The notes under the pieces were generated by a model. That model did not search any database and was not told the DNA's origin. It worked only from the letters and a program-made list of their open reading frames with translations. The position numbers and the translations under genes are program-made. From IMG/VR virus record IMGVR_UViG_3300037067_002687, positions 6,734-70,733 of that record: a stretch of 64,000 nucleotides of DNA; one strand, 5' to 3'. How positions within the stretch are numbered: the stretch's first letter is position 1; every line of letters begins with the position of its first letter. Origin of the DNA: a virus. Lineage: Duplodnaviria; Caudoviricetes. This document shows positions 8,020-35,400 of the stretch, piece after piece.

Positions 8020-9444
8020 TCATGCTGACAGAGCCTCCACGATTCCCTCTTCCTCGATTCCGATGCGGGGCATGGTGTAAGTCCGGTCGCAAACCAGGGA
8101 TAAATCCCCCGGTCGCTGGCCGATAATCAAGCCGATGCACCTTGCCTTTTCGGACTTTCTCCAGGAATTGAATTGTTGTACCATGTCGGACGGTAGGCTG
8201 CAAATGGCATCGGTCAGAAAAATGACGTCAGTCTTTCCTTTCGGGCATCCCAGGGATGGCCATATCTCGGGAAGCTCCTTAATCGGCACGTCCCGGCAAC
8301 TTCCACCGCTGTAGAAGTGTTCCAGCCATTCAATGAGTAGTTCCTGGTCCCAGGAGCCGGGTGCCATGACGGCCGTCGTCGGCGGGCATCCCCCGGAGTA
8401 GCCTATCAATGCCACCCAGCGGGATTGGTGTCGGGCAATCCATGACATGGCTAGGGCAAACGCCTTGGCATTGGCAATCGGCTCGCCTCCCATGGAGCCG
8501 GATTCGTCCACGACCACGACGATGGGACCTCTGGCCACCCGTTCGATGCCGTGGTACTCCCGGCACATGCAGGAGTTTTCGGCTATCCGGCGAAGCAGGT
8601 CGTCCTCTAGGTCCGGGTCCCCGAGAAGCGCCAGTTCGCTGGGAAGCAACCGGCCGGGGTCGCCGTCCAGGACCACGCCTACCATGTCGTCCATGCCGTG
8701 TAGGGTTTTCCTTCTCTGGAGAGCCGCACCGCATCGCCTGTAGCGTCCCGCTAGCTCCATGATACGTCGAAGCGTCTCATTGTTCCGGACGCTCTTAAAT
8801 AGCTCCTGGAGCTTCCCAGCGTTAAACGACTTGCCGGCCACGGCGCCATCCCCGCCCATTCCCAAGGCGCTCATGGCGTCTTCGGCGCTTTTGACACTTT
8901 CCTCGGCGTCTGTGATGGCATCCCCAGCGGCCGCCATGACTTCCAGGGGGTCCGGGTTAGACTTGCTCGTCGCCAGCTTCATCCAGCGGGACGAGAGGTC
9001 TACGGTCGCAATCCTTGCCGTCAACTCGTTCATTACCGTGTGCGTCCGTAGCGCCTGGAACTCGGGTGTCTCTAGGAGTTGCCGCACAAACTCGCCCCTT
9101 TCCTTACTGGCGCAGTTTTCGGCTAGCCTCGGGCTTGTCTGAAAGGCTGCGTTAAATAAGTCGGAAACAGTCAAGGACTCCGGGGACTCGGGAGACAGGG
9201 ACGGTTGGCCGGCGGCCACTATGAAAGTCAAGCCTTCCTGGTGAACGGTGGGAACCCCAAATAGCTCTCGCAGCCGTTCGGTCTCGTGCAGGACCTCATT
9301 TCCTTTACGGATTCCCCAGGAATCCAGGCGCAGGGCCGTGGGGCTTTCCGGCATGGAGGGGTCAACGAACTCCTCGGGCTCGACCTCTACGGCCGGTGGA
9401 GCTACGCCAAGCTCGTCAAGTAGTGAAGCAATCTCAGGGCTCAT
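8020..9444 (-). CDS. vWA (ViaA/YehP-like) domain protein
   Basis: C-terminal MIDAS VVVDESGSMGG...GGS...DVIFLTD; helical N-terminus; MoxR AAA in the same operon. Confidence 0.85.
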   Translation of the reverse strand: MSPEIASLLDELGVAPPAVEVEPEEFVDPSMPESPTALRLDSWGIRKGNEVLHETERLRELFGVPTVHQEGLTFIVAAGQPSLSPESPESLTVSDLFNAAFQTSPRLAENCASKERGEFVRQLLETPEFQALRTHTVMNELTARIATVDLSSRWMKLATSKSNPDPLEVMAAAGDAITDAEESVKSAEDAMSALGMGGDGAVAGKSFNAGKLQELFKSVRNNETLRRIMELAGRYRRCGAALQRRKTLHGMDDMVGVVLDGDPGRLLPSELALLGDPDLEDDLLRRIAENSCMCREYHGIERVARGPIVVVVDESGSMGGEPIANAKAFALAMSWIARHQSRWVALIGYSGGCPPTTAVMAPGSWDQELLIEWLEHFYSGGSCRDVPIKELPEIWPSLGCPKGKTDVIFLTDAICSLPSDMVQQFNSWRKSEKARCIGLIIGQRPGDLSLVCDRTYTMPRIGIEEEGIVEALSA

Positions 9445-9613
9445 GGTCGTGATGGTGCAGGTCGTGCTTCAGGTCGGCTATCTGACGCTGAAGGCGATTG
9501 AGTGTCAAGTGGAAACAAACCCACGACACGACGTTCGCCACGGTGACGAAAAGCAGGACGGTGTCCAATAGTAGTAGGTGGTCGTTTTGTGGAATCATTG
9601 TGGGTTTATCCAT
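9434..9613 (-). CDS. 59-aa membrane protein with His-rich tail
   Basis: Hand-translated MDKPTMIPQNDHLLLLDTVLLFVTVANVVSWVCFHLTLNRLQRQIADLKHDLHHHDHEP; overlaps both neighbours. Confidence 0.55.
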   Translation of the reverse strand: MDKPTMIPQNDHLLLLDTVLLFVTVANVVSWVCFHLTLNRLQRQIADLKHDLHHHDHEP

Positions 9614-10692
9614 TCCGCTAGTCTCTGAAGGGCCCCGTCGATTCTGGACTTCAGGCCGTCGCGTTGCTCCCGGCAGACGGCGAGGTCCGCGCGAAACTCC
9701 GCGCGGTCTTGAAGTAGCTCGTTAATTACGATGACCGGATTCACTCCTTCGCGTTGTCCTCCGCAGGAGTAGCAGGGGCACGGATTTTCGCCGTGCGCCA
9801 CGGTTGAGATGATTTCGCATTTACGGCAGAACATGAACCTCTTGCCGTTCTCCATGCTGCCATCACAAGCAAGGACCGTTCCGCGAAGCGAGGCGACTTC
9901 ATCCCGAAGGGCTGAGTTTGATGCCGAGAGCGTTGCGATGGTCTCGTTGAGTTTCCTGGACGTGGACTCTAGGGATTTAATCCTAGCGTCCTTGGAGGCA
10001 TTGTCGTTGAGTAGTTCCTTCTTTTTATTGAACATCTCACGCACCATGCCCCTCACGTTCACTACGGCGCGCGCGGCGCCGCATTTCTGGCACGGCGCGT
10101 ATTGGTTTCCCGGTGATATAGATTCTCTTGAGAGAGTGCCACAGTTTCCGCAATGCAGGTCAACCGCGTAGAACGTCGAGGAAAGAATAGCTTTATTGCG
10201 AAGTGATTCCACTTCAGCCCTGCTTTGACGCAACTGTACGGCCATGCTGTCGCGGTCTTCGGTCAGCGAGGAAACCAGAGTTTGCTCAGTCTTCAATAAC
10301 GCAATTAGATTCTGCTTTTCCTTAGCGAAATCGCGCTTCAGGTAATCGGAATAGTTTTTGGCGTTCCCTAGTTCGTCGCGGCAGACTTGCAGCTTCTCGC
10401 GCATCCGGTCACGCTCGAAAGCCATTCGCGCAACGGACTTGTATTTCTCGTTGACGTCTTCATGGTCAAATAACTTCTCCAGCGATTCCACGCGACACTC
10501 GATAAGACACTTCTCGACGGACTCACCCAGCGACTTTGCTACCTCAACAACAGTGGGCGTCCATGAACTTGGCGCGATGGCGGCAATGGACTCCAAGACC
10601 GACGGGCATATCCTGCCCCAGTCGGGATGACTCATGCTCGCCAGCATATACTGCGCCACTTTTACTGCGTTGTTCTTAGTTGTTTCATCCAT
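9595..10692 (-). CDS. coiled-coil protein with two zinc ribbons
   Basis: Heptad-rich segments alternating with CGNC...CQKC and CRKC...CYSC. Confidence 0.7.
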   Translation of the reverse strand: MDETTKNNAVKVAQYMLASMSHPDWGRICPSVLESIAAIAPSSWTPTVVEVAKSLGESVEKCLIECRVESLEKLFDHEDVNEKYKSVARMAFERDRMREKLQVCRDELGNAKNYSDYLKRDFAKEKQNLIALLKTEQTLVSSLTEDRDSMAVQLRQSRAEVESLRNKAILSSTFYAVDLHCGNCGTLSRESISPGNQYAPCQKCGAARAVVNVRGMVREMFNKKKELLNDNASKDARIKSLESTSRKLNETIATLSASNSALRDEVASLRGTVLACDGSMENGKRFMFCRKCEIISTVAHGENPCPCYSCGGQREGVNPVIVINELLQDRAEFRADLAVCREQRDGLKSRIDGALQRLAEWINPQ

Positions 10693-10696
10693 GATA

Positions 10697-10942
10697 TTAG
10701 CGAATCGCCTCCTCGGGTACGGGTTTGCGCATGAAACGTTGCACAATGGCCGATGATACTCCGCTGCCGTGATTTGTCAAGAGGCTAATCTGACTCCAGA
10801 CCGGGCCTCTTTGTTGATGCAGCCGGTGCATCCCGTCCAAGATTTTCATTAGTATTTCCTCGGGGTCCATGGCTCCCACGTACAACTCGCACCATACCTC
10901 GTTGGCTTGTCGCTGCCTCTCCGGTTTGCTCTGTTCCGCCAT
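10697..10942 (-). CDS. hypothetical protein
   Basis: GAGG RBS; fills the gap between the AAA and coiled-coil genes. Confidence 0.5.
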   Translation of the reverse strand: MAEQSKPERQRQANEVWCELYVGAMDPEEILMKILDGMHRLHQQRGPVWSQISLLTNHGSGVSSAIVQRFMRKPVPEEAIR

Positions 10943-10943
10943 G

Positions 10944-12086
10944 TTACACCTCAGTTCGCTTGACGATGGACTCCGCCACCTTCCCAATCATGTCCTTAAC
11001 GTGGACGGCTCCCCGCGTGGCGCGAACCCCCTTGACCTTGGAGAGCTTCTTGTGGATTTCCTTCAGCTTATTGAGGTCTTCACAGATTTTCGGAATGTCC
11101 GCACGGTGAAGGTCGAGGTTGCGGATAATCTCCTGACTCTCCAGGATGTAGCTGTTCACCTTCATGGAGGAGGGGTTCGCAATCTTCCCGACTATCTCGA
11201 ACAGCTTTTTTGCCTGTTCTTTCGGGTCCATCCACAAGGTGTGCGAGAGAACGGCAAGGTGTTCTGGTTTAACCTCGTCGTCCCCCTCCAGGAAGGCAAA
11301 CGCCTGCGCCGCCTTTTTTGACTTGCAAAGTCGCCGGTCCCCTGGTACAATTCCTTCCTCCCGAGACTCCTTCAGGATTGAGTTAAGGCAATCTTTCGCG
11401 TCCTGGGTCCAAGGGATACCGGCGACGGCTTCCATGCCAACATTGATGTCGGATTCCGTAATGTACGTCGTAAGGACCGGTCGATGGTCTCCGCCCCAGA
11501 GGAGCAAGTCAAGGCCATCGTCCGTGGAAATCGGATTGACGTTCTTGCGGAAGGTGAATCGGTCGAAGAAGGCGCCTAGCTCCCTACTGTCCTCGCGTTC
11601 GTGCGGCCATAGGTTACTGGCCGCAATGCACAGACGCAAGGGGCACTTCACTTCAACACCGTCGTTGAGGAAGGTGCGTTCATTGAGAATCTTTAGGGTC
11701 GTGTTCTGGATAGAGCTAGACCCGTTGAATATCTCGTCAATGAAGGCGATATGGGCCTCGGGCAGCTTCCCCTTGGTGATTCGTCGGTAGACGTCCGCGC
11801 GAAGTCCGCTGACGCTCACGGGGCCGCACACTTCCTCGGGGGTTGTGTACTTTGTGAGAAGGATGGAAAATATCTGGCCACCCTTCAACCAAGAAACGAA
11901 ACTGTCCGCCAAGAGGCTTTTGGCCGTTCCTGGAGGCCCAACCAGGAGGACATGCTCCCCAGACAGAAGACCGAGGAGGCATAAGTCAATCTCCTCGGAC
12001 CTCTGAATAAGGGATTCGTTTAGGTCAGTGCGCATCGAAGCGTACTTGCCTCGAACGATGTCGATTACGCCGTCTTCCGTCGCCAT
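10944..12086 (-). CDS. MoxR-family (RavA-like) AAA+ ATPase
   Basis: Walker A GPPGTAKS, Walker B IAFIDEIF, sensor AASN, Arg finger FFDRF, PEEVCGP motif. Confidence 0.9.
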   Translation of the reverse strand: MATEDGVIDIVRGKYASMRTDLNESLIQRSEEIDLCLLGLLSGEHVLLVGPPGTAKSLLADSFVSWLKGGQIFSILLTKYTTPEEVCGPVSVSGLRADVYRRITKGKLPEAHIAFIDEIFNGSSSIQNTTLKILNERTFLNDGVEVKCPLRLCIAASNLWPHEREDSRELGAFFDRFTFRKNVNPISTDDGLDLLLWGGDHRPVLTTYITESDINVGMEAVAGIPWTQDAKDCLNSILKESREEGIVPGDRRLCKSKKAAQAFAFLEGDDEVKPEHLAVLSHTLWMDPKEQAKKLFEIVGKIANPSSMKVNSYILESQEIIRNLDLHRADIPKICEDLNKLKEIHKKLSKVKGVRATRGAVHVKDMIGKVAESIVKRTEV

Positions 12087-12358
12087 CGCTTAGCCTTTCT
12101 CGATTCGTTGATGGTTTCGATAACGGTCTTGGCGTGATGCTTCGAGAGGATGGAGTTGCAATTCCTCCAGTCGCGCAGCTTCACGTCCGACCGTTTCAGG
12201 AAGGCTCGGATGCTATGCCGCAGGGCAATGGCCTCTTCACTCTCCTCGGTGATGGAAATGCCGTAGACCCGGTCCGCGATGCCGCGAACAGAAAACCCTC
12301 CATTGCGGGCCATGGCAAGGATGCGCATCTTGCGGATGTCGTTAAGCATCGTCTTCAC
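12065..12358 (-). CDS. hypothetical basic protein
   Basis: 97-aa ORF overlapping both neighbours. Confidence 0.55.
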   Translation of the reverse strand: MKTMLNDIRKMRILAMARNGGFSVRGIADRVYGISITEESEEAIALRHSIRAFLKRSDVKLRDWRNCNSILSKHHAKTVIETINESRKAKRWRRKTA

Positions 12359-12726
12359 GGCTTATCTCCTAGGCTAAGGGCGAGTTTCAGCATATAGAAC
12401 GCTTGCTCAGAAAGGTATCCCCTTACGTCGGCGCGTTGCTCTCGCAATCGCTCCACTTCCGTCAACTCCGGCTTGATGGGCTCTTGTGATTCCATGAGGA
12501 GAGGCGCCGTTCGTGGCACCTTCCGTTTTCTGCCGGCCTTGACTGCCTTACTCCGTTTCGGCTTGGCCAATCTTCCTCGGGTCCGATACACAACATTCCC
12601 CACGGAACGCATCGTCGCCTCCGGAAACCGCTTCTGCACAATGGGAAGCAGCTTCGAGGGTACGGCTGTTGGGTCCTTCTCGACCAGCTTGATGGTCATT
12701 TCCGTTTGGGGCGTAAACTTCGACAT
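12355..12726 (-). CDS. hypothetical basic protein
   Basis: AGGAG RBS; Lys/Arg-rich centre. Confidence 0.6.
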   Translation of the reverse strand: MSKFTPQTEMTIKLVEKDPTAVPSKLLPIVQKRFPEATMRSVGNVVYRTRGRLAKPKRSKAVKAGRKRKVPRTAPLLMESQEPIKPELTEVERLREQRADVRGYLSEQAFYMLKLALSLGDKP

Positions 12727-12737
12727 GGCTTTAACTC

Positions 12738-13598
12738 CTAGGCTGCGCTATCTTCTGAAACGCCGTCTTCCGGGCGCAGTTCCGTAATGCGGCGGTACAA
12801 CTCGTCTTTGGCTTTATCGAGTGCATCCTGCAACGAACGCTTCTCCGCTCCTAAATACTCACTGTAGGCGTCCACCTTGTTATAGATGGTCGTCCATCGG
12901 TTCTTAGCGCGTTCCATGGTCGAACCGCGCGTCGTGTCGTCCCATTCGGACACCGCGCCGTTAAGTTCATCCACGAGGGTAGCGATGCCGGCCTTAATAG
13001 CGCCGCGAACGCTCTCTTCGCCCTTCTCGTCACCCCTTGGAACCGGGAAACGGCAAATCTCACCACCCAGGGAGGACATGAACGCCTCAACCTTTGCGGT
13101 GAACTCCCGATGCTCAATAGGTACAAAGTACGCAACACCCTTACGCGGATTGATAGGGAACAGGTCAGCGTTGTCGTTGAATAGCTTCTGGACAAGGCGC
13201 GTGATGTCCTGTCCGGTTCTGGTTTCTTTGGCGAAGTCTACGAGCTTCTGGGTCTGTTCCTCTAGGACTCCATCTTCCTGACAGGAGACGCTTCCCGTCT
13301 CCGCGTCCAATTCCATCTGACACTCGTAATCGAACTCCAGCTTGCCGTCCTCCAGTTCCTTGCGGGTGAATTGGTAGATGACGGGTCCGCCTTTTTTCTT
13401 CCCGCTCTGATTCAGCCGGTCGATGCTCCGGTTTTCCTTAAGTGTCTTACAGGCGCGCTTGAAAGCGCTCTTGGGAGACAACTCGGAAGCCGCATCTGGG
13501 TCAAGGCCGGCCTCACGCAGCGCGTCGATGACGTCATGGTACGGGATGTCCTGGGTCGCGATGTCCCACGTAACGACTTCGCCTAACAATGGACTCAT
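12738..13598 (-). CDS. conserved protein of the MoxR/vWA cluster (recalled as DUF6744-like)
   Basis: GEVVTW...DALREAGLD...FKRAC...YFVP..H..F pattern matches my recollection of planctomycete proteins beside AAA/vWA genes; needs HMM confirmation; GAGGAG RBS before ATG 13598. Confidence 0.6.
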   Translation of the reverse strand: MSPLLGEVVTWDIATQDIPYHDVIDALREAGLDPDAASELSPKSAFKRACKTLKENRSIDRLNQSGKKKGGPVIYQFTRKELEDGKLEFDYECQMELDAETGSVSCQEDGVLEEQTQKLVDFAKETRTGQDITRLVQKLFNDNADLFPINPRKGVAYFVPIEHREFTAKVEAFMSSLGGEICRFPVPRGDEKGEESVRGAIKAGIATLVDELNGAVSEWDDTTRGSTMERAKNRWTTIYNKVDAYSEYLGAEKRSLQDALDKAKDELYRRITELRPEDGVSEDSAA

Positions 13599-14247
13599 GG
13601 CTTTGCTCCTCGGGAAATAGGTCGGGTAATTCGCCATTGGGCGGAAGGGAATGCAGGTACTCGCTGGTTTGTCCGATGTTGCTATGGCCGGCCCAATCGC
13701 GGACTTGCACGAGACTATAGCCTCGCTCGATAGCATACGAACAGAAGTTGTGGCGCAGGCTGTGGGTGTGTAGCTGACTCCCACGCTCCGGACCTAGGAC
13801 GGCGACGAATATCTTCTTCCAGCGATTGCTCAGCGTCCTTGGGATAATCTCACGTCCGTAGTTGTCCCCATGCCCGCAGGTGCAGAGAAACGGGTCCGTA
13901 TCGGCTGCCCCTCGGTTTCTCCGTGACTCCGCCCATGCCTGAAGGTCCAGGAAGGCCGACTTATCCATGAAGGGAACGAATCGGCTAGAACGCTTGCCTT
14001 TCGTGGTGCATCGCTTGGCGGTGATGCCGGGCTTCGCGCCGACTAAGACGACGTCGCACATGCGTAGCTGGCACATTTCGGAACGCCGATACCCGAAACA
14101 GGTGGAGATGCGGAAGCTGACGAGGTCGCGATGGGCGCGAACGCCAACGATGTTCTGGCCTAGATTCCACTGCTTCGCCATCTGCTTCCGCAGGTAGGAC
14201 AAGATGAGGTGGATTTCATGCTTTTCTAGTAGCTCGCAAGACTTCAT
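13534..14247 (-). CDS. tyrosine recombinase, catalytic domain only
   Basis: R (FGYRRSE), K (TTKGK), HSLRH, GHSNIGQTSEY; 237 aa, no N-terminal core-binding domain. Confidence 0.85.
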   Translation of the reverse strand: MKSCELLEKHEIHLILSYLRKQMAKQWNLGQNIVGVRAHRDLVSFRISTCFGYRRSEMCQLRMCDVVLVGAKPGITAKRCTTKGKRSSRFVPFMDKSAFLDLQAWAESRRNRGAADTDPFLCTCGHGDNYGREIIPRTLSNRWKKIFVAVLGPERGSQLHTHSLRHNFCSYAIERGYSLVQVRDWAGHSNIGQTSEYLHSLPPNGELPDLFPEEQSHESIVRRSRYVGHRDPGHPVP

Positions 14248-14289
14248 CGCCGGGTTGAGCGTTTGGTGTTGGGTTGTCTGAATAGCCCA

Positions 14290-14318
14290 ACTCTACCATG
14301 GGCGATGATTTTTCGCAA
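14290..14318 (-). promoter_or_regulatory. sigma70-type promoter of the recombinase-MoxR-vWA operon
   Basis: On - strand: TTGCGA, 17 bp, TAGAGT with upstream TG. Confidence 0.6.
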
Positions 14319-14403: not shown

Positions 14404-14781
14404 TTACGTCTCGCATGGTTCCCTCCAGGAATCGACTTCCTCTTGTGTAATCCGGTTGGGGGCGTTCGGGTTGACAAGATAATTGAAGGCTGATAAGTCG
14501 TAGTCCTCGGGTGCCTTGCTTCCCAGGACGGCAAGCTGTCGAGACTGGGGCCACGCCGCCTTGTCTTCGACCCTCTGTCCATTGCAGTAGGCGCATAAAA
14601 CGAGAATAGCGAAGGGCTTGTCGAGCGCCTTATCCCGGCAAGGCCCGTTCGCTATCTCGTGACAGCACAACTCAGACAACTCTCTACCGAACCGGGAAGG
14701 CTCTTTGGGGCTTGCCCCGCAAATCATGCACCTTCCCGCTTTCCGTATGAGAGCCGTGCGAATCGGCTTGACCTCGCTCAT
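14404..14781 (-). CDS. HNH/His-Me finger-like nuclease
   Basis: CMICG...CCHEI...VLCAYCN spacing typical of small phage HNH/NinG-like proteins. Confidence 0.55.
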   Translation of the reverse strand: MSEVKPIRTALIRKAGRCMICGASPKEPSRFGRELSELCCHEIANGPCRDKALDKPFAILVLCAYCNGQRVEDKAAWPQSRQLAVLGSKAPEDYDLSAFNYLVNPNAPNRITQEEVDSWREPCET

Positions 14782-14998
14782 GCGCTTTCTCCGCTTGGCG
14801 GAAACGCTTCTGAGGTGGTTCATAGGGGACAATCTCCGCGTTCTTGTATCCGCGGTCTATCGCGTACTGTTTCCAGAACTCAGCTTCGCTCTTTTCGAGC
14901 GGGCTGTTCGTCCAGGGGTCTCGCCAGGGTCGATTACCAAAAGTGACGAGGACGCGAAATAGGGGCCTGTTTTCCGAACTCACGGTTCTTTCTCCCAT
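14684..14998 (-). CDS. hypothetical protein
   Basis: Protein-like 3' part of ORF 14684-15238; ~100-nt overlap with the next gene lowers confidence. Confidence 0.4.
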   Translation of the reverse strand: MGERTVSSENRPLFRVLVTFGNRPWRDPWTNSPLEKSEAEFWKQYAIDRGYKNAEIVPYEPPQKRFRQAEKAHERGQADSHGSHTESGKVHDLRGKPQRAFPVR

Positions 14999-16481: not shown

Positions 16482-17057
16482 TCAGCCTTTCGTCGTTTCT
16501 TGACAAGTTGTCAGTATACCATTTTTTTCAAAGGAACGCAATAGCAATTCCAGGCGAGCCAAGGCATTCCAGGCGTGGTGGGCGGCGTGCAGCAACCCAG
16601 ACTCGGGGTCTGTCGCCTCGCTCCCTTCGGCCAGGATATGACGCAGCCCGGCAGCGGTGTACCGCTCGAATCCTTCAGGAACCGACTCCCATCCGTTGCG
16701 GGTGTACTTGGCGGCGCCATAGGTCGAGACTTCGCCGACCTTACTCAAGGCACGTCCGAATCCGATAAGAAGACTGAGGTCCGGCTTCCCATGGTCGAGC
16801 TTTGCGCCGGGTTCATGCTGGGCAATTCCATTGGGGTCCACCGCCGGCCAGACATGCTCCTTGTCGCCTTGGCGTTTCACGAACTCGTCGTAAGCCTTGG
16901 ACAACAGCGAATCGCCTGAGCCCGAGGGGACCCAGCGTCCTTTCTCGACATCGTACTCAGCGAGTGGCAAATACGTACCCGGAGGCTGCATTGTTTCGGT
17001 CGGTGCCTTGTCGCCCGGCAAATACCCGGACACCTTAGTTAGTGACGTATGCTCCAT
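16482..17057 (-). CDS. dATP/dGTP diphosphohydrolase-like (DUF5664-type) protein
   Basis: GAKLDHGKPDLSLL...YGAAKY..NGW...RH...DPESGLLHAAH.AWNAL motifs. Confidence 0.85.
   Translation of the reverse strand: MEHTSLTKVSGYLPGDKAPTETMQPPGTYLPLAEYDVEKGRWVPSGSGDSLLSKAYDEFVKRQGDKEHVWPAVDPNGIAQHEPGAKLDHGKPDLSLLIGFGRALSKVGEVSTYGAAKYTRNGWESVPEGFERYTAAGLRHILAEGSEATDPESGLLHAAHHAWNALARLELLLRSFEKNGILTTCQETTKG
16500..16541 (-). promoter_or_regulatory. operator copy 2 (TTGACAAGTTGTCAG, 16500-16514) + sigma70 promoter
   Basis: - strand TTGCGT (16541-16536), 17 bp, TATACT (16518-16513); lies inside the last codons of 16482-17057. Confidence 0.8.
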
Positions 17058-17059
17058 GA

Positions 17060-17617
17060 TTATTCAGTGGCCTCCATGATGGCGGTACGGACGTCGTCAA
17101 TCCATGAACTCACGGACCGAGCGTGCAATTTATTCCAGGGGCGAGGAACCAGGACGCCGACCCCGCCGGATTCACGCCATCGGTCGATATTGACGTCGCA
17201 GTCATCAACCAAGACGTATCCAGGACGGGCGAGGACATGCTTACAGTTGCATTGAATCATCCGCCCCTGCATCGACGGCAGGAACTCCTGGACCCACTGG
17301 ACCTTGCCTTTCCAGGATTCGGGGGAATGACTCGGGGAAGTCAGCAGGTAGACGTCGTCTCTCCCTACGGCCTTGCAGCAGGTCTTGAGGATTTCGTACC
17401 CGTCTACCGTCCAGGGGAGATTGGCCCAGAACTCCGCGCTGTTGCAGGGTTCCCAGAAGGCTTCGCCCGACATGCCAAAGATTTTGGCAATGTCCCACTC
17501 GCCCCCATTGAGCCCGTTGGCGTAGGGACTCGCCAGACCCTTGGCGGAACACCAGCCAAGCACGAAATCGGCCAGTACCCCGTCCATGTCCAGGAAGATT
17601 TTGAAGTTGTTCTTCAC
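17060..17617 (-). CDS. HAD-family 5'(3')-deoxyribonucleotidase
   Basis: IFLDMDGVLADF, LLTSP, K, LVDD motifs; GTG start with AGGAG RBS. Confidence 0.85.
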   Translation of the reverse strand: MKNNFKIFLDMDGVLADFVLGWCSAKGLASPYANGLNGGEWDIAKIFGMSGEAFWEPCNSAEFWANLPWTVDGYEILKTCCKAVGRDDVYLLTSPSHSPESWKGKVQWVQEFLPSMQGRMIQCNCKHVLARPGYVLVDDCDVNIDRWRESGGVGVLVPRPWNKLHARSVSSWIDDVRTAIMEATE

Positions 17618-17627
17618 GTCGTCGCTC

Positions 17628-18395
17628 CTATTGGTAAACGTCTCGGATTTTGTGTAAGAGGTCTTTTTCGGACCAGGGGGGGTCCGCATTCGTTCGGTTC
17701 CAGGACAATATGGCAAGCAACGCCTCCGCTTCCGACATCCCGGAATCGTAAAGGCAGGCAACCGCCCGGTATGTGTCGTCATGTCCGCCGCTCCCTGCAA
17801 TGGCTCGTATTCGTGAGATGTAGGCAATCCCGTCAGTGATTCGCTTGTCGCTCTCGTAATCGACGGCCGTCCGTTCAGGTCTCCATGCCGGGTCGAACGG
17901 AGGAAGCAGGTGCGTCTCAATGAGCGGCCGGCGCCAAGAGTATTCCCCTAGCGAATGTTCCGATGGGGGGCAAAGCACATAGCCGCCCTCCGCGCGGACG
18001 TCGTACCGAGACACTCCGTCCCACTCGACGTGCGTAGCGTTGCGAATCTCCCCTTCATCAGGACACCGGAAGTAGAAATGAAAGCCGCGTTTCGTTTGCA
18101 CAATCGAGGGCGTCTGTCCTTTGTTGTTCCAGAACCAAGTGGCGTCTTCCGGCGTGTCGCAATCCACAACCACAAGGTTGGAAATCCGACCCGTGATGAT
18201 GCCGAGGTTCTCCTTCTTCCAGGACAGTATCTCTTTAATGGACGGGAGGCGGGTCTGGAACTCTTTCCAGGTGACAAGAGGGCGCTTGTCCTCGCCCATA
18301 GCTAGGACCGCGAGCCTGTAACGCTCACGGTAGAGCATCGCGTATGCTACCCATCGCTCAGACCTAGTAGATTCCATGTGACACCCGCCTCCCAA
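17628..18395 (-). CDS. bifunctional primase-polymerase (Prim-Pol) with PriCT-like C-terminus
   Basis: KRPLV.WK...NLGIITG...LVVVDCD...TKRGFHFYF...DVRAEGGYVLCPPS. Confidence 0.88.
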   Translation of the reverse strand: MGGGCHMESTRSERWVAYAMLYRERYRLAVLAMGEDKRPLVTWKEFQTRLPSIKEILSWKKENLGIITGRISNLVVVDCDTPEDATWFWNNKGQTPSIVQTKRGFHFYFRCPDEGEIRNATHVEWDGVSRYDVRAEGGYVLCPPSEHSLGEYSWRRPLIETHLLPPFDPAWRPERTAVDYESDKRITDGIAYISRIRAIAGSGGHDDTYRAVACLYDSGMSEAEALLAILSWNRTNADPPWSEKDLLHKIRDVYQ

Positions 18396-20524: not shown

Positions 20525-20977
20525 TTATCCAATAAAAAGCACGTCAACGTCATTGTCGCAAAGCAGCCAAGCACGAACAGCGTCATAGACCTGCTCGACG
20601 TCCAGTCCTCCAAGTCCACAACCGAGAGCCGGGATGGCGACCGAATCCACCCCACGGTCATTGATAATCTCCCGAAGCCCCACTAGGCCGCATTGAATCC
20701 AGGCGATGTCGCTTGCATTGCGCCAGTGGTGCTTGGTCGGGAAGTTGACAACGTAGCGCGGCGTTTCGTCGGACCCACGGTCGTAGACGGTAGGCTCCCC
20801 AATGGCGAGGATGCCACGCTTGCAGTCCTGCTTGTACTTAGGGACCATGGCCGGGAAGTGTTCAGAGAATGCCTTCGCAAGTCCGGCGCCCATGACTCCG
20901 ACGCAATTGACGGGATTGACAATCATGTCCACGTCAAGGCGAAAGATGTTGGCGTTCTTGTCTCGGATGACGGTCAT
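20525..20977 (-). CDS. DarG/TARG1-like macrodomain ADP-ribosylglycohydrolase
   Basis: IVNPVNCVGVMGAGLA, VVNFPTKHHWR, SVAIPALGCGLGGL; start at ATG 20977. Confidence 0.85.
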   Translation of the reverse strand: MTVIRDKNANIFRLDVDMIVNPVNCVGVMGAGLAKAFSEHFPAMVPKYKQDCKRGILAIGEPTVYDRGSDETPRYVVNFPTKHHWRNASDIAWIQCGLVGLREIINDRGVDSVAIPALGCGLGGLDVEQVYDAVRAWLLCDNDVDVLFIG

Positions 20978-21198
20978 TGCGGGCCCCCTCTCAGGAACGC
21001 CGACGTATCGCGAATCAAGGAACCGACCTTTTCCTCGAAGATGTCCAGGGCGTTCATGTCTCCTTGCGGATGGCCGGTCTGCTCTAGGTACACCTTGCGT
21101 CCCAGGCATTGAATCTTCGTTTGCACGATAGACACTTCGCCGGGGGTGGCTACGTGTTCGACGATTCGTGCGCGTCCTACGGGTTTGTAGTCTATCAC
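20974..21198 (-). CDS. hypothetical protein (74 aa)
   Basis: GTGA/ATGA overlaps on both sides. Confidence 0.55.
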   Translation of the reverse strand: MIDYKPVGRARIVEHVATPGEVSIVQTKIQCLGRKVYLEQTGHPQGDMNALDIFEEKVGSLIRDTSAFLRGGPQ

Positions 21199-21968
21199 GC
21201 GGCTTCCTCCTCGGCGGCTGCCATGACCTCGCCGGCGGGAACCGCGGCATCGTAGACATGGATGTCAATTGACGGGTCAACCTCACGTAAAAGGCCGAGG
21301 ATAACAGTCTGCAACCAATCGTCAGACGAGCCGGCCTTTTCCCAGTCAATCTTGCTGCAAAGCCGGTCGATGACGCTCGCAAAGGACGGAAGCGTGATGC
21401 GGTACCCCTTGGCGTAATACTTCAGCACGCGAAGGAGAGAACCGCCGGGCTCCTCGTCACGGAAGGGGGCCATGTACTGGAGACGCTTGGACGCCAAATC
21501 GTCGTAGAATTGGTCGTGGCAGCAGGACTTCCAGGACTTCGAGGCGACATCGTACCAAAGCGCCGCGGAACAGATGGTGAAGTCGAACGATTCGCAGACG
21601 TCCTCGGGGCGTGAGTAGTCCCACCGATGGATGAATTGAACCGGCGGTTTCAGGAGAACCGTCACGGCATTATCGGTCTCGATGATTTTCCGCTTATCGG
21701 CGACAAGTCCATTGATTAAGTTTGCGGACGCCAAGGCTGATGTTCTCCTTTGTTCCGAGAACTCCTTGCAAGTCGCAAAAACACAAGAGACTCCAGTTGG
21801 CAACGGGAATACCTCGAAACAGTCGATGTCGTTGATGTCCTCCCGTGCGATGCAGGCGCGGATGTAGCCGCCCGCAACGACGATGGGTTTCTCCTTCATT
21901 ATCGACAGCAACGGCGCCGGAAGTCGGCGAACGCACCATTGCACATCAAGTTCGTTGAGTGGTCTCAT
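21195..21968 (-). CDS. Pol-beta-superfamily nucleotidyltransferase (polyA polymerase/CCA-type head)
   Basis: VVAGGYIR...DINDIDCF...QFI...FDFTIC signature. Confidence 0.75.
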   Translation of the reverse strand: MRPLNELDVQWCVRRLPAPLLSIMKEKPIVVAGGYIRACIAREDINDIDCFEVFPLPTGVSCVFATCKEFSEQRRTSALASANLINGLVADKRKIIETDNAVTVLLKPPVQFIHRWDYSRPEDVCESFDFTICSAALWYDVASKSWKSCCHDQFYDDLASKRLQYMAPFRDEEPGGSLLRVLKYYAKGYRITLPSFASVIDRLCSKIDWEKAGSSDDWLQTVILGLLREVDPSIDIHVYDAAVPAGEVMAAAEEEAA

Positions 21969-29397: not shown

Positions 29398-29450
29398 ATT
29401 ATAGCACTAAGGCGATTCGATGTCAATACCGTTTTTTGACAATTTGTCAG
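29398..29450 (-). promoter_or_regulatory. consensus sigma70 promoter + operator copy 6 (TTGACAATTTGTCAG, 29436-29450)
   Basis: - strand TTGACA (29426-29421), 17 bp, TATAAT (29403-29398) with TG; operator ~10 bp upstream of -35, inside the last codons of the giant gene. Confidence 0.85.
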
Positions 29451-32400
29451 ATTTCGGATTATTTCCTGTTTTGAGGCTATTCGCCATGTCAATCAGGGCC
29501 TTTCGGTCTTCCGGCTTCTGCTTGCGGACTATGCGCGACCTCACCAGAGGACGTAGCGATAAACGCTCCTCCTGGGTGGCTTCTTTCCAGACGAGCTTCA
29601 ATTCCTGCGTCGATAGGTTCCGCGCCCTCCATTGCAGGTCCGTCATTTGCCCCTTCTTACGGAGATTCACGGCTTCACGATGCGAAATGTCGCCGGACTT
29701 CAAAAGCCCGCTCACCGCCTCAGTGCCAGCCTTGACGTCGCCCTTGCGGAAGGCCGCGAGGGCCGGCTGCTTAGCCTCAATCTTATGGCGTTCGTCCTCG
29801 GTGATACCGGACCCTAGTTTATTCGTCAGCAGCGTCTTGGCAAGCTCCCCAGCGGCCGTGGTGGGCTGTGCCATGGTCGTAACACCATAGCTGCGAACGG
29901 CTTGCTCTAAAATGGCCTTATCGGCGTCCTCCTTGGGTGTTCCTGATACCTCGACCCCAAACAGGCGCGCGAGGGACTTGCCGACACCGTACATGAGCGG
30001 GTTTTGTGCCTCCATGGCGGCGCGGGTGTTTTCGACCTTCTGGGCCATCCCGCCCTCGGGGATTCGTTCCGCTTCCATCTGGCCCCGCATGTCCATGAAT
30101 TGACTTCCAGTCAGGGCTTTCGATAGGAACCCAATCCCAGGACCCGTGAAGGGGTGCATGACGGTCTGTATCGTCTCCGTCAGCATGTCTCCCATGACTT
30201 GATTGGCGTTCCTGCCCTGTTGGACGTCCCGCATCAAGGAACGCAACCCAAGCGACCGTAGGCCGCGTGACAGGCCCTCCACCTGGAAGATGTCCAGGAT
30301 TTTCCGGCGGCCCTTTTCGTCGTCGCCGAGGTCGATAGAGCCTAGCGGTGTTCCGGGTCGTCCAAAGGGGCTTCCGCTGTTCATGTAGTTGGCGATAGCG
30401 GCCATGGTGGGTATTAGCGCCAGCTTGGAAAGCTGCACTAGGCGTGCCTCGGTGGCGGCGGCCTTTGATGCTGCCTCGAATCCCGGATTTCCTAAGACGG
30501 CGCGCCGCGCAACGCGATTCATGGTCTTGCCGGCCACAATGAAAGGCGAGAGGCCGTAATCGCGCAAGTTCTGTTCAACCTTCCCCATGACGCGCCGGTT
30601 GTAGACGCCAAGCTGATTGATGAAGTCGCGGCGATTGCCTGGAGTGTCCTTGGCGGAACCGCGCTTCACGAGGTTCGTGAAGAAGTCGTCAAGCACAAGA
30701 CGGCTGGCGGTGTCGATGGCATGGATGGCCTTGGCACCCGGCCACTTCGTTTGATAGGCGGGGCGGATGGCGCCAATCTTCGCAAGCTCGGCGGTGCGGG
30801 CCACAACGTCCGGAGTCTGATTGACAACGTCCGACATCTTCCGGACGATGCGTACCGCGGAGTCGGCTCCGGAAAGGAACGGAATCTTCCGGAGAACGTC
30901 ACTCAAGGTGGACTCTGCGCCTTGCGAGTTGGTGATGGTTCGCCAGAGGTTGAGACTATGGCTGACGGCGTCGGCCTGACTGAGGAGTTGCACCTTCGTC
31001 AGGATGTCGGCCCACCATAATGGATTTCCCTTCATGTCCGTGTTGAGGATGCGTTTCGTTTCCCCGACCAAGTCGTTCCGCACCCAGATAGCCCCGCGCT
31101 CATTGATGTGCGTCTGAAGCGTCTCGGGGTCCGTCACTGGCAGGTCAACCGGGATTCGCTCGTATCCCTCGGGTCCCTTGAACTCGAATCTCCTACCCGC
31201 TTGGCGCGGAGGCTCCAGGACCGCGACACGTGAATCCACCAAGGATTGGTAGAACCGTACTTTCGTTGCTTGATTGTACCGTGGGCCGACCACCGCCATG
31301 AGGTTGGTCTCCAGGTCGTTCGAGTATTCCCCGGTTCCCTTGGCTCTCCGCATGTAGGAGTCTCGACGAACGTCTGGATTTCGGTGGGCCCCTGCGCCAG
31401 CGCCGGACCCTTGCGGCATGGGATTGGTGTTATTCTCTCTGAACTCGCCCCACTTGGCCGCGCGGTCTAAGGTCAGCAGGTTGATTCTAGCGTCCGTATG
31501 CCTCCCACGACCGTCCTGCGGCGTGTCCTTATCGAGCATCTTCACTTCATTGTAAAGCTCGTTTAGGTATGGGTTTACGTGCGTTTTCCATAGCTCAACC
31601 TGCTCGGTAATTTTCGGGTCATTCAGCTTCTCCTGGACGAACGCATCTAAGGCGTCCAGGTCGTGAGTTTCCTTAATGTCCTCGGCCCACTTCATGTGGC
31701 CGGACGAGAGGGAGGCGTCGTAAATCCCGAGAATGTTGTCGGCATTTAAGACGTCAGCCACGTCGGCCATTTCCTTTTTGGAAGGCTTGTTGCCGAACAC
31801 CTTTTGCAACAGGTCAGCCACGATGGGTCTTGCCGCCTGGGAAGCATAGGCATGACTGAACGCCGCATCACGAACTGACGAGGTAGTCCGGGATAGTTTC
31901 GGAAGGTGCGAGTTGCCGAACAGGTCCCGAATCTGGTCGGCGTGGTTCTTGAAGGCACCGCCAAGCTCAACACTGGGAAGCATAGCCGGCATGACGGACC
32001 CGTAGACGCGCGTGGAATCTTCGCCGTTGTCGTCCGGTGGAGGCGACGTGTACTTCGGCGGTTTGGGTGGACCCTTCCCGCTGCCTCCAGCATCAGACCA
32101 GTCGCGCACTTGCGGACCCTCGGGTTTCGGCGCCTCGGCGGTTGGTATCGTCTCGCCGACAATCTTCCGGGCGGTCTCGCGGTTGGACTCTGCCTGTAGG
32201 GAGGTAATCCGCATCAGAGCATCAATCGCCGCCTGTTGCCGGTCGGGCTCTGTGACGTAAAGTTCCATCTTGATGCCGCCACGACTGACAAACTCATTGT
32301 TGGCTGCTTCCTGAAGCGGCTTGTTGAGGAAGTAGGCTCCACCAGTCCTCTTGGAGATAGGAACCCGCACGACAAGGATACCGTTGGACTTCATCACGGA

Positions 32401-35400
32401 AACAACATGGTCTGGGCTGGTGAGCGTAATCCCTGCCTCGACAGCTTCCATGGAGTGCGAAGACTTCGACATGACAATCGGCTTGTTCTTGGCCCACTGC
32501 TGGACGTCGAAGTTCTTGGGTAGAAGCAATCCCCTCTGGATGTTCCCCTTATTGTCGGTGAAGAAGGTGGGCTGAGCGCGGACGCCCTCCAGCTTCCCAG
32601 CGGCGGCAATGACGTTCCCGGTGGCGATGTAACGCTTCTCGCGGGACGTTGTTCGGGCATCGTCGAATTGCTTCAGGACTCCGTCGAAGTCGGAGTAGCT
32701 AGGACGTAGGGCTGGGTCCGCCACGGCAATCTGTGATACGGGTATCTTGACAACGCGGGTCGAATCGGCGAGGGCCACCTCGACCGTCCAGGCGGAAGGC
32801 GCCGATGGGTTCTTGGCCTTCCCTGTTCGAGAGAACCCCAGGACGATGCCGTCAATCCCTCCGTCCATGGTGTCGTAGGTGATAGTCGTGCCCGGCGCAA
32901 GCTGACGCATCGCACCCGTTACCTTGTCGAAGTAGGTGGACATCGACTGTCGGCGGGCATTCCTTGTGTCCGGGTCCACAACACCCTCTAACTGTGAATC
33001 CAGGTACTCGATTGTCGATTTCCTGAGCGTCTCGTAGGATTCCTTCGTCCAGGACTTACGATTATCGGGGTCCGACATATCCCCCTGCTTCCCACCAGAA
33101 GCCTTTAGCCTCTTCTTGATTTCCTTGGACGACATCGACTGTCCAACCTTCTTGGCGTCCACCTCATCGACATAGGCGGAATGCTCGAAGGGATTATCCG
33201 ATTCGTCGTTCCCGTCCGCAATCTTGAAACGTGACGTCGTCTTCGCTTCGAGCGGTAGCGTTTTCGCTTCCAAGGGGTTCTGCCCGGACTGCTCAAGCTC
33301 CTCGATTTTGGAGTTAAACATGGCCGTGACGTCGTCCCAGAAGGCTTGCTGCATCTCGACCGGAAGAAGCGCCACGCGACCACTGAGCTTACGGGCTACG
33401 GCGCCAGGGTCGCCAGCCGATACCTGCTTGCGTAGGACATCGTCCGAAAGGGGGCTGCCTATCATGTGATGCGCGTCGGAGTTTTCAGAGAACCAGCGAA
33501 TGATGGCCTCGTCACCAATCTTATTGATGATGTCCGGCACGTTGAAGTTGATGGCGCTTTCCGCATTGGCGGTTACGTTGGCGTTGAGGTTCCTGAGCTT
33601 CTTGGTTAGCGTTGCGGCCGGGCGAAGTTCCGCGGGCACGTCCGTCATGGGAAGCACGTACATCGGCATGTTGGTCTGGCCGTTGACTTCGCGAATCTGT
33701 CCTGTCCGGTTGATGCGCCCGAGAATCTGCATGAACTCGTCAATGTTCTTAGCGGCCTGCGCCACCAGCATGACGCGGCGTTTCTGTCCGGCTACCGGGT
33801 TCTTTTCGCTGGCGTGGGCGCTAATGCCTTCGGCCGACGAACGGTTTCCTATGATGACGTCCACGGTTCCATCGTTGAATCCGGCAACACTGGCAAGTTT
33901 TCCTTGACTCCCGACTTCAGTATCGGGCCTGTTCGTCAGGATGGCGCTCCCGTCCGCTCTGTAGTCTATGACCATCTGACGGCCGGTGATTTCTTTGACG
34001 TTCATGCCGGCTTGGCGCATCTTGTAAATCATGCGGTCAATCGGAGAGGCCGTAACGCCCTTCTCGAACTTGTTGATAAGCCCTTGCGTCTTCTCAAATA
34101 GCTGCAAGGCGACTGGACCTAACTCCTCATCGGTCAATTGCCGACGCTCCCAAGTGGACTTGTCGTCCTTGTCGCCCTTGAGCGTGATTCGGCGGCTACG
34201 GTCTAGGTACTTCTGCAACAGGTCGCGGAAGTCGATGTCAATCTTGTCTCCGGCGTTCAACTCGTTCTGGTCGGCGTACCCTTGAAGGACCGATTCTAAA
34301 GTGTTGTCCACCGCTACAAAAACCGCCTTGCCTTCCTTCCAGTGCTGAATCGCTTCGTCGGCGACGACATCCGCCTTGGAGGCAAAAATCATCTGGTCCA
34401 CCAGATTCCATAGGATAGAGGAGAATTGCGTACTCTCCACCCCGGCGTTTCCCACCGCATTGTCGGCGGATAGCATTCCGCCTTGGCTGACAATCGTGGA
34501 TTCCACCGCTTCCATGGACTCCTCTTTCGCACGGTCGAAGTCGTTGATGGAGCGGAAAATCTCCGTCATGCTGTCGATTTTGGAGAGGTCGGTCGGAATT
34601 ACCTTTTGGTGGAAGTCAATTCCATCCCAGGACTGCTCCAGGCGTGTTAGGTATCCGCCCTCGGTCATCATTTCCGAGGCCATTTGCTGTCCAGGGATTC
34701 CGAGCTTATGGAAGATTTCCGGCAGCTTCTTCGGGTCATCGACGGCGGCGCCCAGTCCGGACCGGAAGTAGAGGTCAAGCACTCCAGGATGCTTCGCCCA
34801 GGTCGCCGTGGAGTAGGCTACGCCGGCCGCATCGCCCACGAGGGTACGCGCGAACTCAGCGCGATTCTCCAGGTGGTTTTTGGCGGCGCGGTCGTTTGTG
34901 CCACCACCGCCAGCGTTATGGGCTTCGTCCGAAATCACGAACGAGTTTGACGCTAGGGAGCGCAGGAAGTTCCTTCGCCAGGGTTCGGACTTTGCGACGG
35001 TCTGAATCTGAGGGTAGGTCGTGAAAATCGCGTCGAACGTAACGGACTTCCCGTTCACCTTGGCGGTCAGACCCTTGCCTTTCAGGTAGTTCTTGGCGGC
35101 CTCTTGACAGATACGCTTCGCCTCTTCGCCGGTCTGACTGATAACGCGGCCATCACTTAGCTTGACTTTAGACCGGCCAGAGAAATCGCCAGTGGCAAGG
35201 AACGTGAACGGCTTCTCGGGAGTGTTCAGCCCGACCTCCGTCATGGCGTCAATTTGTGACGAAAGCAAGTCCGGGGACTTCGTCAGGAACAGAGGAATCA
35301 GAGACTTACGCTTGGCGTATTCCATGATTCCGGCAATGATGCGTCCCTTGCCAAAGCCTGTCTGGTGTCCAATGACGGTGGCTAACCCTTTTTCATGGTT

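Follow-up and report, generated by a model that had tools for sequence, protein, structure and literature searches.

Pairs of a MoxR-family AAA+ ATPase and a vWA protein are common, and few have a known client. In E. coli, RavA–ViaA belongs to a chromosomal, respiration-linked operon, while in the metal-insertion or activase pairs NorQ–NorD, CbbQ–CbbO, and CoxD–CoxE a MoxR ring and a vWA/MIDAS adaptor act on one dedicated client. The MoxR–vWA ternary conflict systems, found in the genomes of multicellular bacteria, add a third component (VMAP, iSTAND, FtsH, or a beta-propeller), and their hallmark is the presence of variable effector domains C-terminal to the vWA (Kaur et al. 2020, PMC7159879). 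Pairs have also been noted on mobile elements, usually outside the structural genes. In the portions of the literature drawn on here, the viral examples are p618/p892 of the Acidianus two-tailed virus (ATV), jumbo-phage group 2.2, orf66/orf63 of 0305phi8-36, HVTV-1, and Hardycor1, and the plasmid examples are ORF101/103 of pCAR1 together with R478, Rts1, SXT, and R391; those portions mention no DUF6744-type partner for any of them. The locus described here has such a partner. It lies in a 64,000-nucleotide stretch of a planctomycete tailed phage (Caudoviricetes), referred to as the window, which forms part of the 70.7-kb IMG/VR record IMGVR_UViG_3300037067_002687.

The sequence-only reading from which we started had proposed a nine-gene operon headed by a recombinase. 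The string of overlapping genes was found just as described: nine ORFs on the minus strand, between 8020 and 14247, are tightly packed and coding-like according to the ORF list and their composition. Neighboring ORFs overlap by 4–65 nt or, in one case, are separated by an 11-nt gap, GC3 exceeds GC1 and GC1 exceeds GC2 in all nine, and AGGAG-type ribosome sites precede several of them. What did not survive was the idea that all nine form a conserved unit. The only conserved unit of the string is a DUF6744 protein (286 aa, 12738–13598), a RavA-like MoxR ATPase (380 aa, 10944–12086), and a ViaA-like vWA protein (474 aa, pI 4.8, 8020–9444), and for this window the “nine-gene system” is thus reduced to three core genes.

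When the ORFs of approximately 32 related loci were clustered, DUF6744 was common to 28 loci, vWA to 27, and MoxR to 23, with the next cluster reaching only 8. By tblastn, all three genes were present in every locus retrieved with the DUF6744 query (L004–L030) that had enough flanking sequence. Their order is not fixed, with DUF6744–MoxR–vWA in 12 loci and MoxR–vWA–DUF6744 in 4. The pairwise distance matrices of the three proteins are correlated (r 0.81–0.92, Mantel p 0.0005), as would be expected for any linked genes with a common history. The three genes therefore do co-occur elsewhere and diverge in step. The carriers include planctomycete phage contigs and contigs of metagenome-assembled genomes, the Moorella jumbo phage MTATph1, and plasmids of Brevibacillus, Nocardia, and Pseudanabaena. 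An association of the 286-aa family with AAA and vWA genes in planctomycetes, which the sequence-only reading had put forward, proved to be true of DUF6744 and extends well beyond that phylum. Two phages already noted for their MoxR–vWA pairs, Bacillus phage 0305phi8-36 and the halovirus HVTV-1, also hold a DUF6744-type gene (orf46 in the former), which is a new observation; in neither is that gene adjacent to the pair, the three being approximately 10 kb apart in the former and dispersed in the latter. The trio is patchy and accessory, being found in 8 of 301 Planctomycetota genomes and in none of 14 control genomes. Since it travels together in so many phages and plasmids, the trio probably forms one machine.

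The ATPase is a member of the MoxR family, with an AAA_5/MoxR module, an AAA lid, and the Walker A (GPPGTAKS) and Walker B (DEIF) motifs that can be read from its sequence. Its best Pfam match is bpMoxR (PF20030, E 2.5e-45, 154.5 bits against a cut-off of 27), followed by AAA_5 (PF07728, E 6.8e-23, 81.7 bits against 22) and AAA_lid_8 (PF17868, E 1.1e-8, 35.2 bits against 22.8), and it also matches phrog_19600 (E 5e-67). The vWA protein has an intact MIDAS, as had been claimed, in which D313, S315, and S317 of the DxSxS motif, T405, and D412 are invariant in an alignment of 18 relatives. Its VWA_2 score of 19.5 bits is below the cut-off of 27, so the assignment rests on the motif, on a match to phrog_24053 (E 4.6e-21), and on the VWA_CoxE and VWA_2 matches of the Moorella homologue. 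In the protein and 17 aligned relatives, about 60 residues follow the final aspartate of the MIDAS, and these contain no additional domain.

Both proteins can be aligned with RavA–ViaA, whose two genes are likewise neighbors. The ATPase aligns to the AAA+ module and lid of RavA (NF010054 positions 12–297, E 6.8e-47), and the vWA protein matches ViaA in the region where the MIDAS starts (NF008230, E 3e-12). However, neither is an equivalog, as the ATPase scores 160.6 bits against a cut-off of 681, and the vWA protein scores 46.5 against 500 over residues 248–346 only. The last 200 of the 498 positions of the RavA model, which we take to hold the LARA domain, are unmatched by the 380-residue ATPase. 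Moreover, RavA–ViaA has no counterpart of the constant DUF6744 partner, and the trio is carried by phages and plasmids and not by a chromosomal, respiration-linked operon. With the ternary conflict systems, the trio shares a MoxR ATPase that is closest to bpMoxR, a vWA protein, and one constant third protein. However, its third protein differs from all four that have been described, its vWA lacks C-terminal effector domains, none of the nine proteins of the string matches a VMAP, iSTAND, FtsH-type, or beta-propeller family, and its carriers are phages and plasmids.

The third protein is acidic (pI 4.8) and belongs to DUF6744 (PF20529, 37.3 bits against a cut-off of 27), with residues 64–336 of the long ORF aligned to model positions 19–308 of 314. 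It has 137 close homologues, most of which carry PF20529 in their precomputed Pfam assignment, and at E<=0.001 the homologues form 1997 representative clusters. Among cultured phages, tblastn with the window's protein gave no match, and only the Moorella homologue found cultured relatives. Acidic residues that are conserved in DUF6744 include E7, D60, E92, D131, and D145. The AlphaFold2 model (pLDDT 90) predicts a ferredoxin-like core with a TBP-like insert and a C-terminal three-helix bundle. Against the PDB, neither the full-length protein nor its N-terminal 192 residues had a Foldseek match at E<=0.001, the N-terminal domain had no VIA match with Z of at least 8, and the helical bundle had generic helical matches only. 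No STAND or P-loop NTPase was among the listed best structural matches of the model. A profile search over PDB sequences returned nothing meaningful, a search of the ESM Atlas returned DUF6744 clusters only, and longer members of the family (400–672 aa) have no informative additional domain. Since the protein is acidic and the fold searches gave no recognizable DNA-binding or catalytic fold, its link to DNA is drawn from its neighbors only. DUF6744 is named in no paper found by our literature search, and PADLOC matches none of the three core proteins, in agreement with the earlier suspicion that the system is undescribed.

The remaining six genes, namely the recombinase and five small or medium genes, are local additions, inserted within or next to the module, and are not among its general components. 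The first of the string encodes a small tyrosine recombinase (237 aa, 13534–14247) that consists of the catalytic domain only (PF00589, E 5.6e-14, 52.7 bits against a cut-off of 27.1, residues 40–200), with the catalytic residues R54, K83, H162, R165, H188, and Y197 invariant in six sequences. It is not a classical phage integrase, as no SAM-like domain was matched, its catalytic match already begins at residue 40 (model position 23), and its relatives are of similar size (204–261 residues). While it is the sole PF00589 match in the 70.7-kb record, it adjoins DUF6744 only in the window and five other loci (L004, L005, L014, L035, and L036), all from one phage clade, and two of these six loci also carry a full-length integrase. 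Relatives were found elsewhere without the trio, and the recombinase was accordingly rejected as a component of the system that it had been thought to head. Repeats around it are short and imperfect, and none, direct or inverted, flanks the recombinase or the operon.

The five other genes encode two basic proteins (123 aa, pI 10.5, 12355–12726, with coding-like GC3 and an AGGAG site, and 97 aa, pI 11.1, 12065–12358, with coding-like composition), a small ORF of at most 96 aa for which an internal ATG may be the true start (10697–10987), a coiled-coil protein with two zinc ribbons, read from its two CxxC...CxxC pairs (9595–10746; 383 aa from a TTG or 365 aa from an ATG at 10692), and a 59-aa peptide whose sequence contains a single hydrophobic segment (9434–9613). 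Profile searches gave no family match for the basic proteins, the small ORF, or the peptide, and the zinc-ribbon protein had only weak coiled-coil matches (Rad50, E 4e-4; LmuB, E 3.7e-4). None of the five has a counterpart in the other loci, where the small ORFs that separate MoxR from vWA show no motif in common with the one here. The proposal that the small genes belong to the system was consequently abandoned, and all five are better described as variable filler. We likewise rejected the idea that a small fourth gene is conserved in the interval from MoxR to vWA; there is no room for one in 9 of 20 loci, and the small ORFs share no motif.

The regulation of the string had been read as that of a unit outside the lytic regulon, with its own promoter and perhaps expressed in lysogeny. 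The proposed promoter, TTGCGA-17-TAGAGT (about 14289–14318, minus strand), is a weak, promoter-like sequence within the 156-nt gap upstream of the recombinase. It agrees with the consensus at only 8 of 12 positions, and our promoter scan did not call it; in that scan, promoter-like sites in the region showed no excess over shuffled sequence. A site with 11 of 12 positions is found at 10780–10753, directly upstream of the zinc-ribbon gene. The reading was correct that the proposed promoter has no operator, as the repeated palindrome of this phage is absent between 5725 and 16495. However, an operator-bearing promoter at approximately 16519–16548 points in the same direction, with the operon 2.2 kb downstream and no terminator called in between. 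The operon is also contiguous with genes for nucleotide metabolism and recombination, and upstream in the window are genes for a PDDEXK nuclease, an AAA_23 protein, a Macro domain protein, a helicase, NT5C, and a MazZ-like hydrolase. (The MazZ-like gene hinted at a Z-genome pathway, which was dismissed when no PurZ-type adenylosuccinate synthetase was found.) Since the operon follows an operator-bearing promoter that points the same way and is located inside a replication and nucleotide-metabolism region, neither a place outside the lytic regulon nor a role as a defense system is supported, and we found no evidence of expression in lysogeny. The setting is similar in related loci, where a helicase, Prim-Pol, RusA, and YqaJ are found upstream of the trio. 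Across 27 loci, its commonest neighbor families are integrases (7), resolvases (4), and helicases.

Taken with this setting, we favor, with a probability of roughly 0.55, the interpretation that the trio is a mobile-element remodeling machine that serves the replication, recombination, or establishment of the element's own DNA, with MoxR as motor, the vWA protein as adaptor, and DUF6744 as specificity subunit or client. Its physical assembly, direction of action, and target we infer as follows. By analogy with characterized MoxR–vWA pairs, the MoxR ring would supply ATP-driven force, and the vWA protein would bridge the ring to its target, with the MIDAS metal binding an acidic residue. DUF6744 would either confer specificity as a dedicated subunit or itself be the dedicated client. 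The module would be part of the element's own program of DNA replication, recombination, and establishment, would serve the phage or plasmid rather than protect the host, and would most likely act on a protein complex that associates with the DNA of the element. A bolder version, which we offer tentatively and consider possible without holding it to be the probable one, is that the trio is a previously unrecognized, widespread machine of mobile DNA, common to plasmids and to tailed phages of bacteria and archaea, that remodels protein complexes on the element's own DNA as it enters the cell or replicates, such as those at nicks, at ends, or at intermediates of recombination, with DUF6744 as a new kind of MIDAS-engaged adaptor.

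Several other roles would fit parts of these data. The trio may instead dismantle or inactivate a host complex, such as a defense or nucleoid protein, soon after DNA entry. Phages and plasmids, both of which carry the trio, meet the same host barriers, and some neighbors are suggestive, including NAMPT and PRPP-synthetase genes adjoining the trio in L004, the Macro domain gene near it in the window, and the ssb and MPN/ThiF genes beside it on the Pseudanabaena plasmid. However, the proteins contain no known anti-defense domain, there is no target that we can name, and most of the neighboring genes serve replication and recombination of the element itself, so we consider counter-defense or host takeover unlikely. 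Protection of the host, by a defense or superinfection-exclusion system expressed from a prophage, was the alternative raised by the sequence-only reading. It would agree with a best Pfam match to a model built from MoxR–vWA conflict systems and with the frequent location of the trio near integrases at element borders. However, in PADLOC-DB 2.0 the recombinase, DUF6744, MoxR, and vWA proteins had no match and only the zinc-ribbon protein had one, the weak match to LmuB given above; the vWA has no fused effector, the third component is not one of the four known from conflict systems, and the trio is co-directional with the replication module. In addition, 0305phi8-36, which carries the trio, is described as lytic and shows a growth defect when the island that contains its MoxR and vWA genes is deleted (PMC3357382), a deletion that also took two tRNAs and six other genes. 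Loss of these genes harms the phage, and we regard a defense role as highly improbable.

The two remaining explanations come from characterized chaperones. The best-studied MoxR–vWA pairs insert metals (PMC7159879, PMC13036017), and the trio could, like NorQ/NorD, CoxD/CoxE, or CobS/CobT, insert a metal or cofactor into an enzyme of the element, such as ribonucleotide reductase (RNR). Consistent with this, the gene for the RNR large subunit is immediately followed by DUF6744 in Moorella phage MTATph1 and in HVTV-1. However, RNR is outside the 25 commonest neighbor families across 27 loci, the annotation of the three plasmid loci includes none, and, in a difference from the NorQ–NorD, CbbQ–CbbO, and CoxD–CoxE type of pair, the trio of this phage is accompanied by no gene for a metalloenzyme client. 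Since no RNR was found in the 70.7-kb record, this enzyme was rejected as a general client for this phage, and metal insertion is improbable, if slightly less so than defense. The least probable of the explanations considered is a chaperone for virion assembly. There is a viral precedent in p618/p892 of ATV (PMC7824862), and the ATV ATPase is a distant match (33% identity over 168 residues). However, the trio is also found on plasmids, once beside a conjugative-transfer (type IV secretion) gene, and in phages it is located in the replication module and not in the structural module.

A remodeling machine for the element's own DNA, our preferred reading, has implications beyond this phage. The constant third partner, with its 1997 representative clusters, marks a distinct form of the MoxR–vWA pair that is restricted to mobile elements and ranges from planctomycete phages and Firmicute jumbo phages to actinobacterial and cyanobacterial plasmids and a haloarchaeal virus. 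Cultured carriers exist, including Bacillus phage 0305phi8-36, Moorella phage MTATph1, and the Brevibacillus and Nocardia plasmids. Since elements this different have retained the trio, it probably answers a need shared by invading DNA, and identifying the client could uncover a new step of phage or plasmid establishment or a new route of counter-defense.

The sequence-only reading proposed a nine-gene MoxR/vWA system headed by a tyrosine recombinase. The gene string is real, but comparison across loci indicates a system of three genes, not nine. All nine minus-strand ORFs (8020-14247) were recovered, with junctions that overlap by 4-65 nt or leave a gap of 11 nt, a GC3>GC1>GC2 coding pattern in every one of the nine, and AGGAG-type ribosome-binding sites before several. 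Family searches identified the tyrosine recombinase (PF00589; 13534-14247), DUF6744 (PF20529; 12738-13598; the conserved 286-aa protein of the earlier reading), a MoxR AAA+ ATPase (10944-12086) and a vWA protein (8020-9444). The MoxR protein is RavA-like (bpMoxR, AAA_5 and AAA_lid_8), with both Walker A and Walker B motifs, and the vWA protein is ViaA-like, with an intact MIDAS as had been read (D313, S315, S317, T405 and D412 unvarying among 18 relatives). Two small proteins are basic (12355-12726 and 12065-12358; pI 10.5 and 11.1), the 383-aa zinc-ribbon protein (9595-10746) has coiled-coil character and two CxxC...CxxC ribbons, and the 59-aa peptide (9434-9613) has a single hydrophobic segment.

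To define the unit, we gathered 30-odd loci through DUF6744 homologues, comprising viral, genome and encoding contigs, cultured phages, and plasmids. All-against-all clustering returned three widely shared ORF clusters, DUF6744 (28 loci), vWA (27) and MoxR (23); the fourth-ranking cluster occurred in only 8 loci. With tblastn, the full trio was present in every locus found with the DUF6744 query (comparison loci L004-L030) that had enough flank. They occur in two orders, DUF-MoxR-vWA and MoxR-vWA-DUF, and their pairwise distance matrices are correlated (r 0.81-0.92, Mantel p 0.0005), which is consistent with the genes being inherited as a unit but alone is no demonstration of binding. MoxR and vWA abut with no space for a further gene in 9 of 20 loci, and the small ORFs between them elsewhere have no common motif. 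The clustering found no counterparts in other loci of the basic proteins, the small ORF (10697-10987), the zinc-ribbon protein or the TM peptide, which on this comparison are lineage-specific insertions. The region's best sigma-70-like site (10753-10780, minus strand; TTGACA-16-TATCAT, 11/12) lies within the operon, directly upstream of the zinc-ribbon protein's ATG; the insertion may carry a promoter of its own.

The recombinase is a frequent neighbor rather than the fixed head of the system. All six of its catalytic residues are present and unvarying in six relatives of 204-261 residues. It has no core-binding domain, its Pfam match beginning at residue 40, model position 23. Its position directly upstream of DUF6744 is limited to one phage clade, namely the window and five relatives (L004, L005, L014, L035 and L036). 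Two of these relatives (L005 and L036) additionally encode, downstream of vWA and on the other strand, a full-length integrase; in these two, then, the small recombinase is not merely the integrase of the phage. More remote relatives (36% identity) belong to other integrative elements that lack the trio, next to Wadjet genes or type I restriction and McrA-like genes, and the family may serve small integrative elements. For example, on a 701-kb contig (L037:7001-7657), a 218-aa catalytic-domain-only recombinase with 36% identity to the window's follows a DUF5906 primase-helicase-type gene near Wadjet JetD/JetC. In other loci, the recombinase near the trio is of another kind, either a serine resolvase or a full-length integrase; a recombinase often adjoins because the trio tends toward the recombination or integration end of the element. 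Directly upstream of the window's recombinase is a 142-aa Cys-rich protein (14404-14832) without a Pfam match, whose cluster (c8) is common to L004, L005 and L006.

The source record is a linear IMG/VR virus of 70.7 kb, estimated to be 80% complete, of which the window covers bases 6734-70733. It is a tailed phage, as it encodes a large terminase (59647-61584), a major head protein (54860-55900) and a tail protein (47907-50480), and the minus strand carries nearly all long genes in the window. The nearest relatives of its proteins are in uncultured phage contigs of approximately 70 kb and in contigs of Planctomycetota MAGs; thus, the host is probably a planctomycete. One 3294-aa ORF (29407-39291) separates the tail genes from the replication region.

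A dedicated promoter had been proposed at 14290-14318 (TTGCGA-17-TAGAGT). This is the weak element of the earlier reading: it matches 8/12 consensus positions and was not called by our promoter scan, in which promoter-like sites were no more frequent in the region than in shuffled sequence. A palindrome, TGACA-N3-TGTCA joined to GTATAC, is repeated at nine intergenic sites (5707, 16501, 22825, 26077/26532, 29437, 43344, 57102 and 62659), with 14 strand matches where 0.06 would be expected. Its minus-strand reading overlaps a TATACT -10 element (e.g., TTGCGT-17-TATACT at ~16519-16548), and the palindrome looks like the operator of one repressor on most leftward promoters. As had been noted, the proposed promoter has no operator: there are no copies between 5725 and 16495, which places the trio operon at the distal end of the leftward block headed by the operator-bearing 16.5-kb promoter. 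No terminators were called between that promoter and the operon. There is therefore no support for lysogenic expression or for autonomy from the lytic program. Upstream on the same strand are genes for a PDDEXK nuclease, an AAA_23 ATPase, a Macro domain protein, a helicase, an NT5C nucleotidase and a MazZ-like dNTP diphosphohydrolase; relatives have the same setting, with a helicase, Prim-Pol, RusA and YqaJ. The MazZ-like dATP/dGTP diphosphohydrolase (PF18909, E 9e-23) and the NT5C-type 5'-nucleotidase adjoin each other (16482-17057 and 17060-17920), a pair that suggests manipulation of the dNTP pool; the record has no PurZ-type adenylosuccinate synthetase and hence no sign of a Z-genome pathway. 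The Macro domain protein (20525-21382, E 3.5e-16), within the replication module, may bind or hydrolyze ADP-ribose.

The AF2 model of DUF6744 is confident (pLDDT 90; N-domain alone 92). The N-terminal 190 residues have a predicted ferredoxin-like core, closest to Cas2-type and similar small proteins (Z 6-6.7), with a TBP-like subdomain inserted at residues 40-126 that matches phosphoglucomutase domain 4, the RNase H3 N-domain and RnlA (Z 5-6.4), all under the level indicating kinship. The C-terminal 90 residues are modeled as a three-helix bundle whose matches are all generic. The protein is acidic (pI 4.8), has no catalytic-looking motif, and is better seen as a predicted client or binding subunit than as an enzyme.

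The trio is carried by diverse elements. It is together in Moorella jumbo phage MTATph1 (DUF6744 E 5.6e-61) and on large plasmids of Brevibacillus, Nocardia (adjoining a conjugative-transfer gene) and Pseudanabaena; additional DUF6744 matches are on plasmids of Alicyclobacillus, Streptomyces, Rubrobacter and Subdoligranulum. Bacillus phage 0305phi8-36 encodes MoxR (orf66) and vWA (orf63), with its DUF6744 homologue (ORF046) approximately 10 kb away. Its 310-aa gp71 (L002:1007-1939) has a WGR domain (E 9.5e-5) and lies beside a RecQ helicase, approximately 4 kb upstream of MoxR. Among predicted viral structures, DUF6744 had four clear matches, one of them in halovirus HVTV-1 (383 aa; E 1.6e-12, TM 0.56); this protein is most likely gp25, which is of equal length. 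HVTV-1 gp25 comes just after the gene for the RNR alpha subunit, and its alignment to the DUF6744 profile (E 0.0011) spans 229 columns. In both MTATph1 (L001:1798-5272) and HVTV-1 (L038:5957-10966), the RNR large subunit is followed by a few tiny ORFs and then the DUF6744-type gene; this adjacency could be chance or a hint of a client, and the window's record has no RNR. The profile search returned 1997 representative clusters at E<=0.001, and the Pfam model matched 8 of 301 sampled Planctomycetota genomes and none of 14 control genomes, a patchy distribution that is the pattern of accessory, mobile genes.

Characterized MoxR-vWA pairs include RavA-ViaA, NorQ-NorD, CbbQ-CbbO, Rea1/Midasin and ATV p618/p892. 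By analogy, the MoxR ring would supply force and the MIDAS of the vWA protein would grasp a partner by an acidic residue; DUF6744, because it is the constant partner, would be the client-selecting adaptor or the client itself. The working mode is like that of RavA-ViaA, but the trio does not qualify as an equivalog, since the two scores fall far short of their cut-offs and the C-terminal part of the RavA model falls outside the match. No trio protein matched in PADLOC, and the term "DUF6744" was not found in the literature searched. Viral and plasmid MoxR-vWA pairs were reported earlier, in passages that mention no third partner. Overall, the trio is an undescribed form of an already known type of machine.

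The MoxR-vWA conflict systems, as set out by Kaur et al. (2020; PMC7159879), have a similar three-part logic, but the trio lacks both of their defining features: DUF6744 is none of the four third components described there, and the trio's vWA has no fused effector. Counter-defense is the main rival, though an unlikely one, and metal insertion, defense and virion assembly each trail behind it. Position and neighbors point to action on the element's own DNA transactions. In the deletion account of PMC3357382, loss of orf63 and orf66 from 0305phi8-36 caused a growth defect, which fits a role in propagation, although the deletion also took other genes. We give a probability of roughly 55% to the reading, drawn by analogy, that the trio is a mobile-element remodeling machine that would serve the element's own DNA program.
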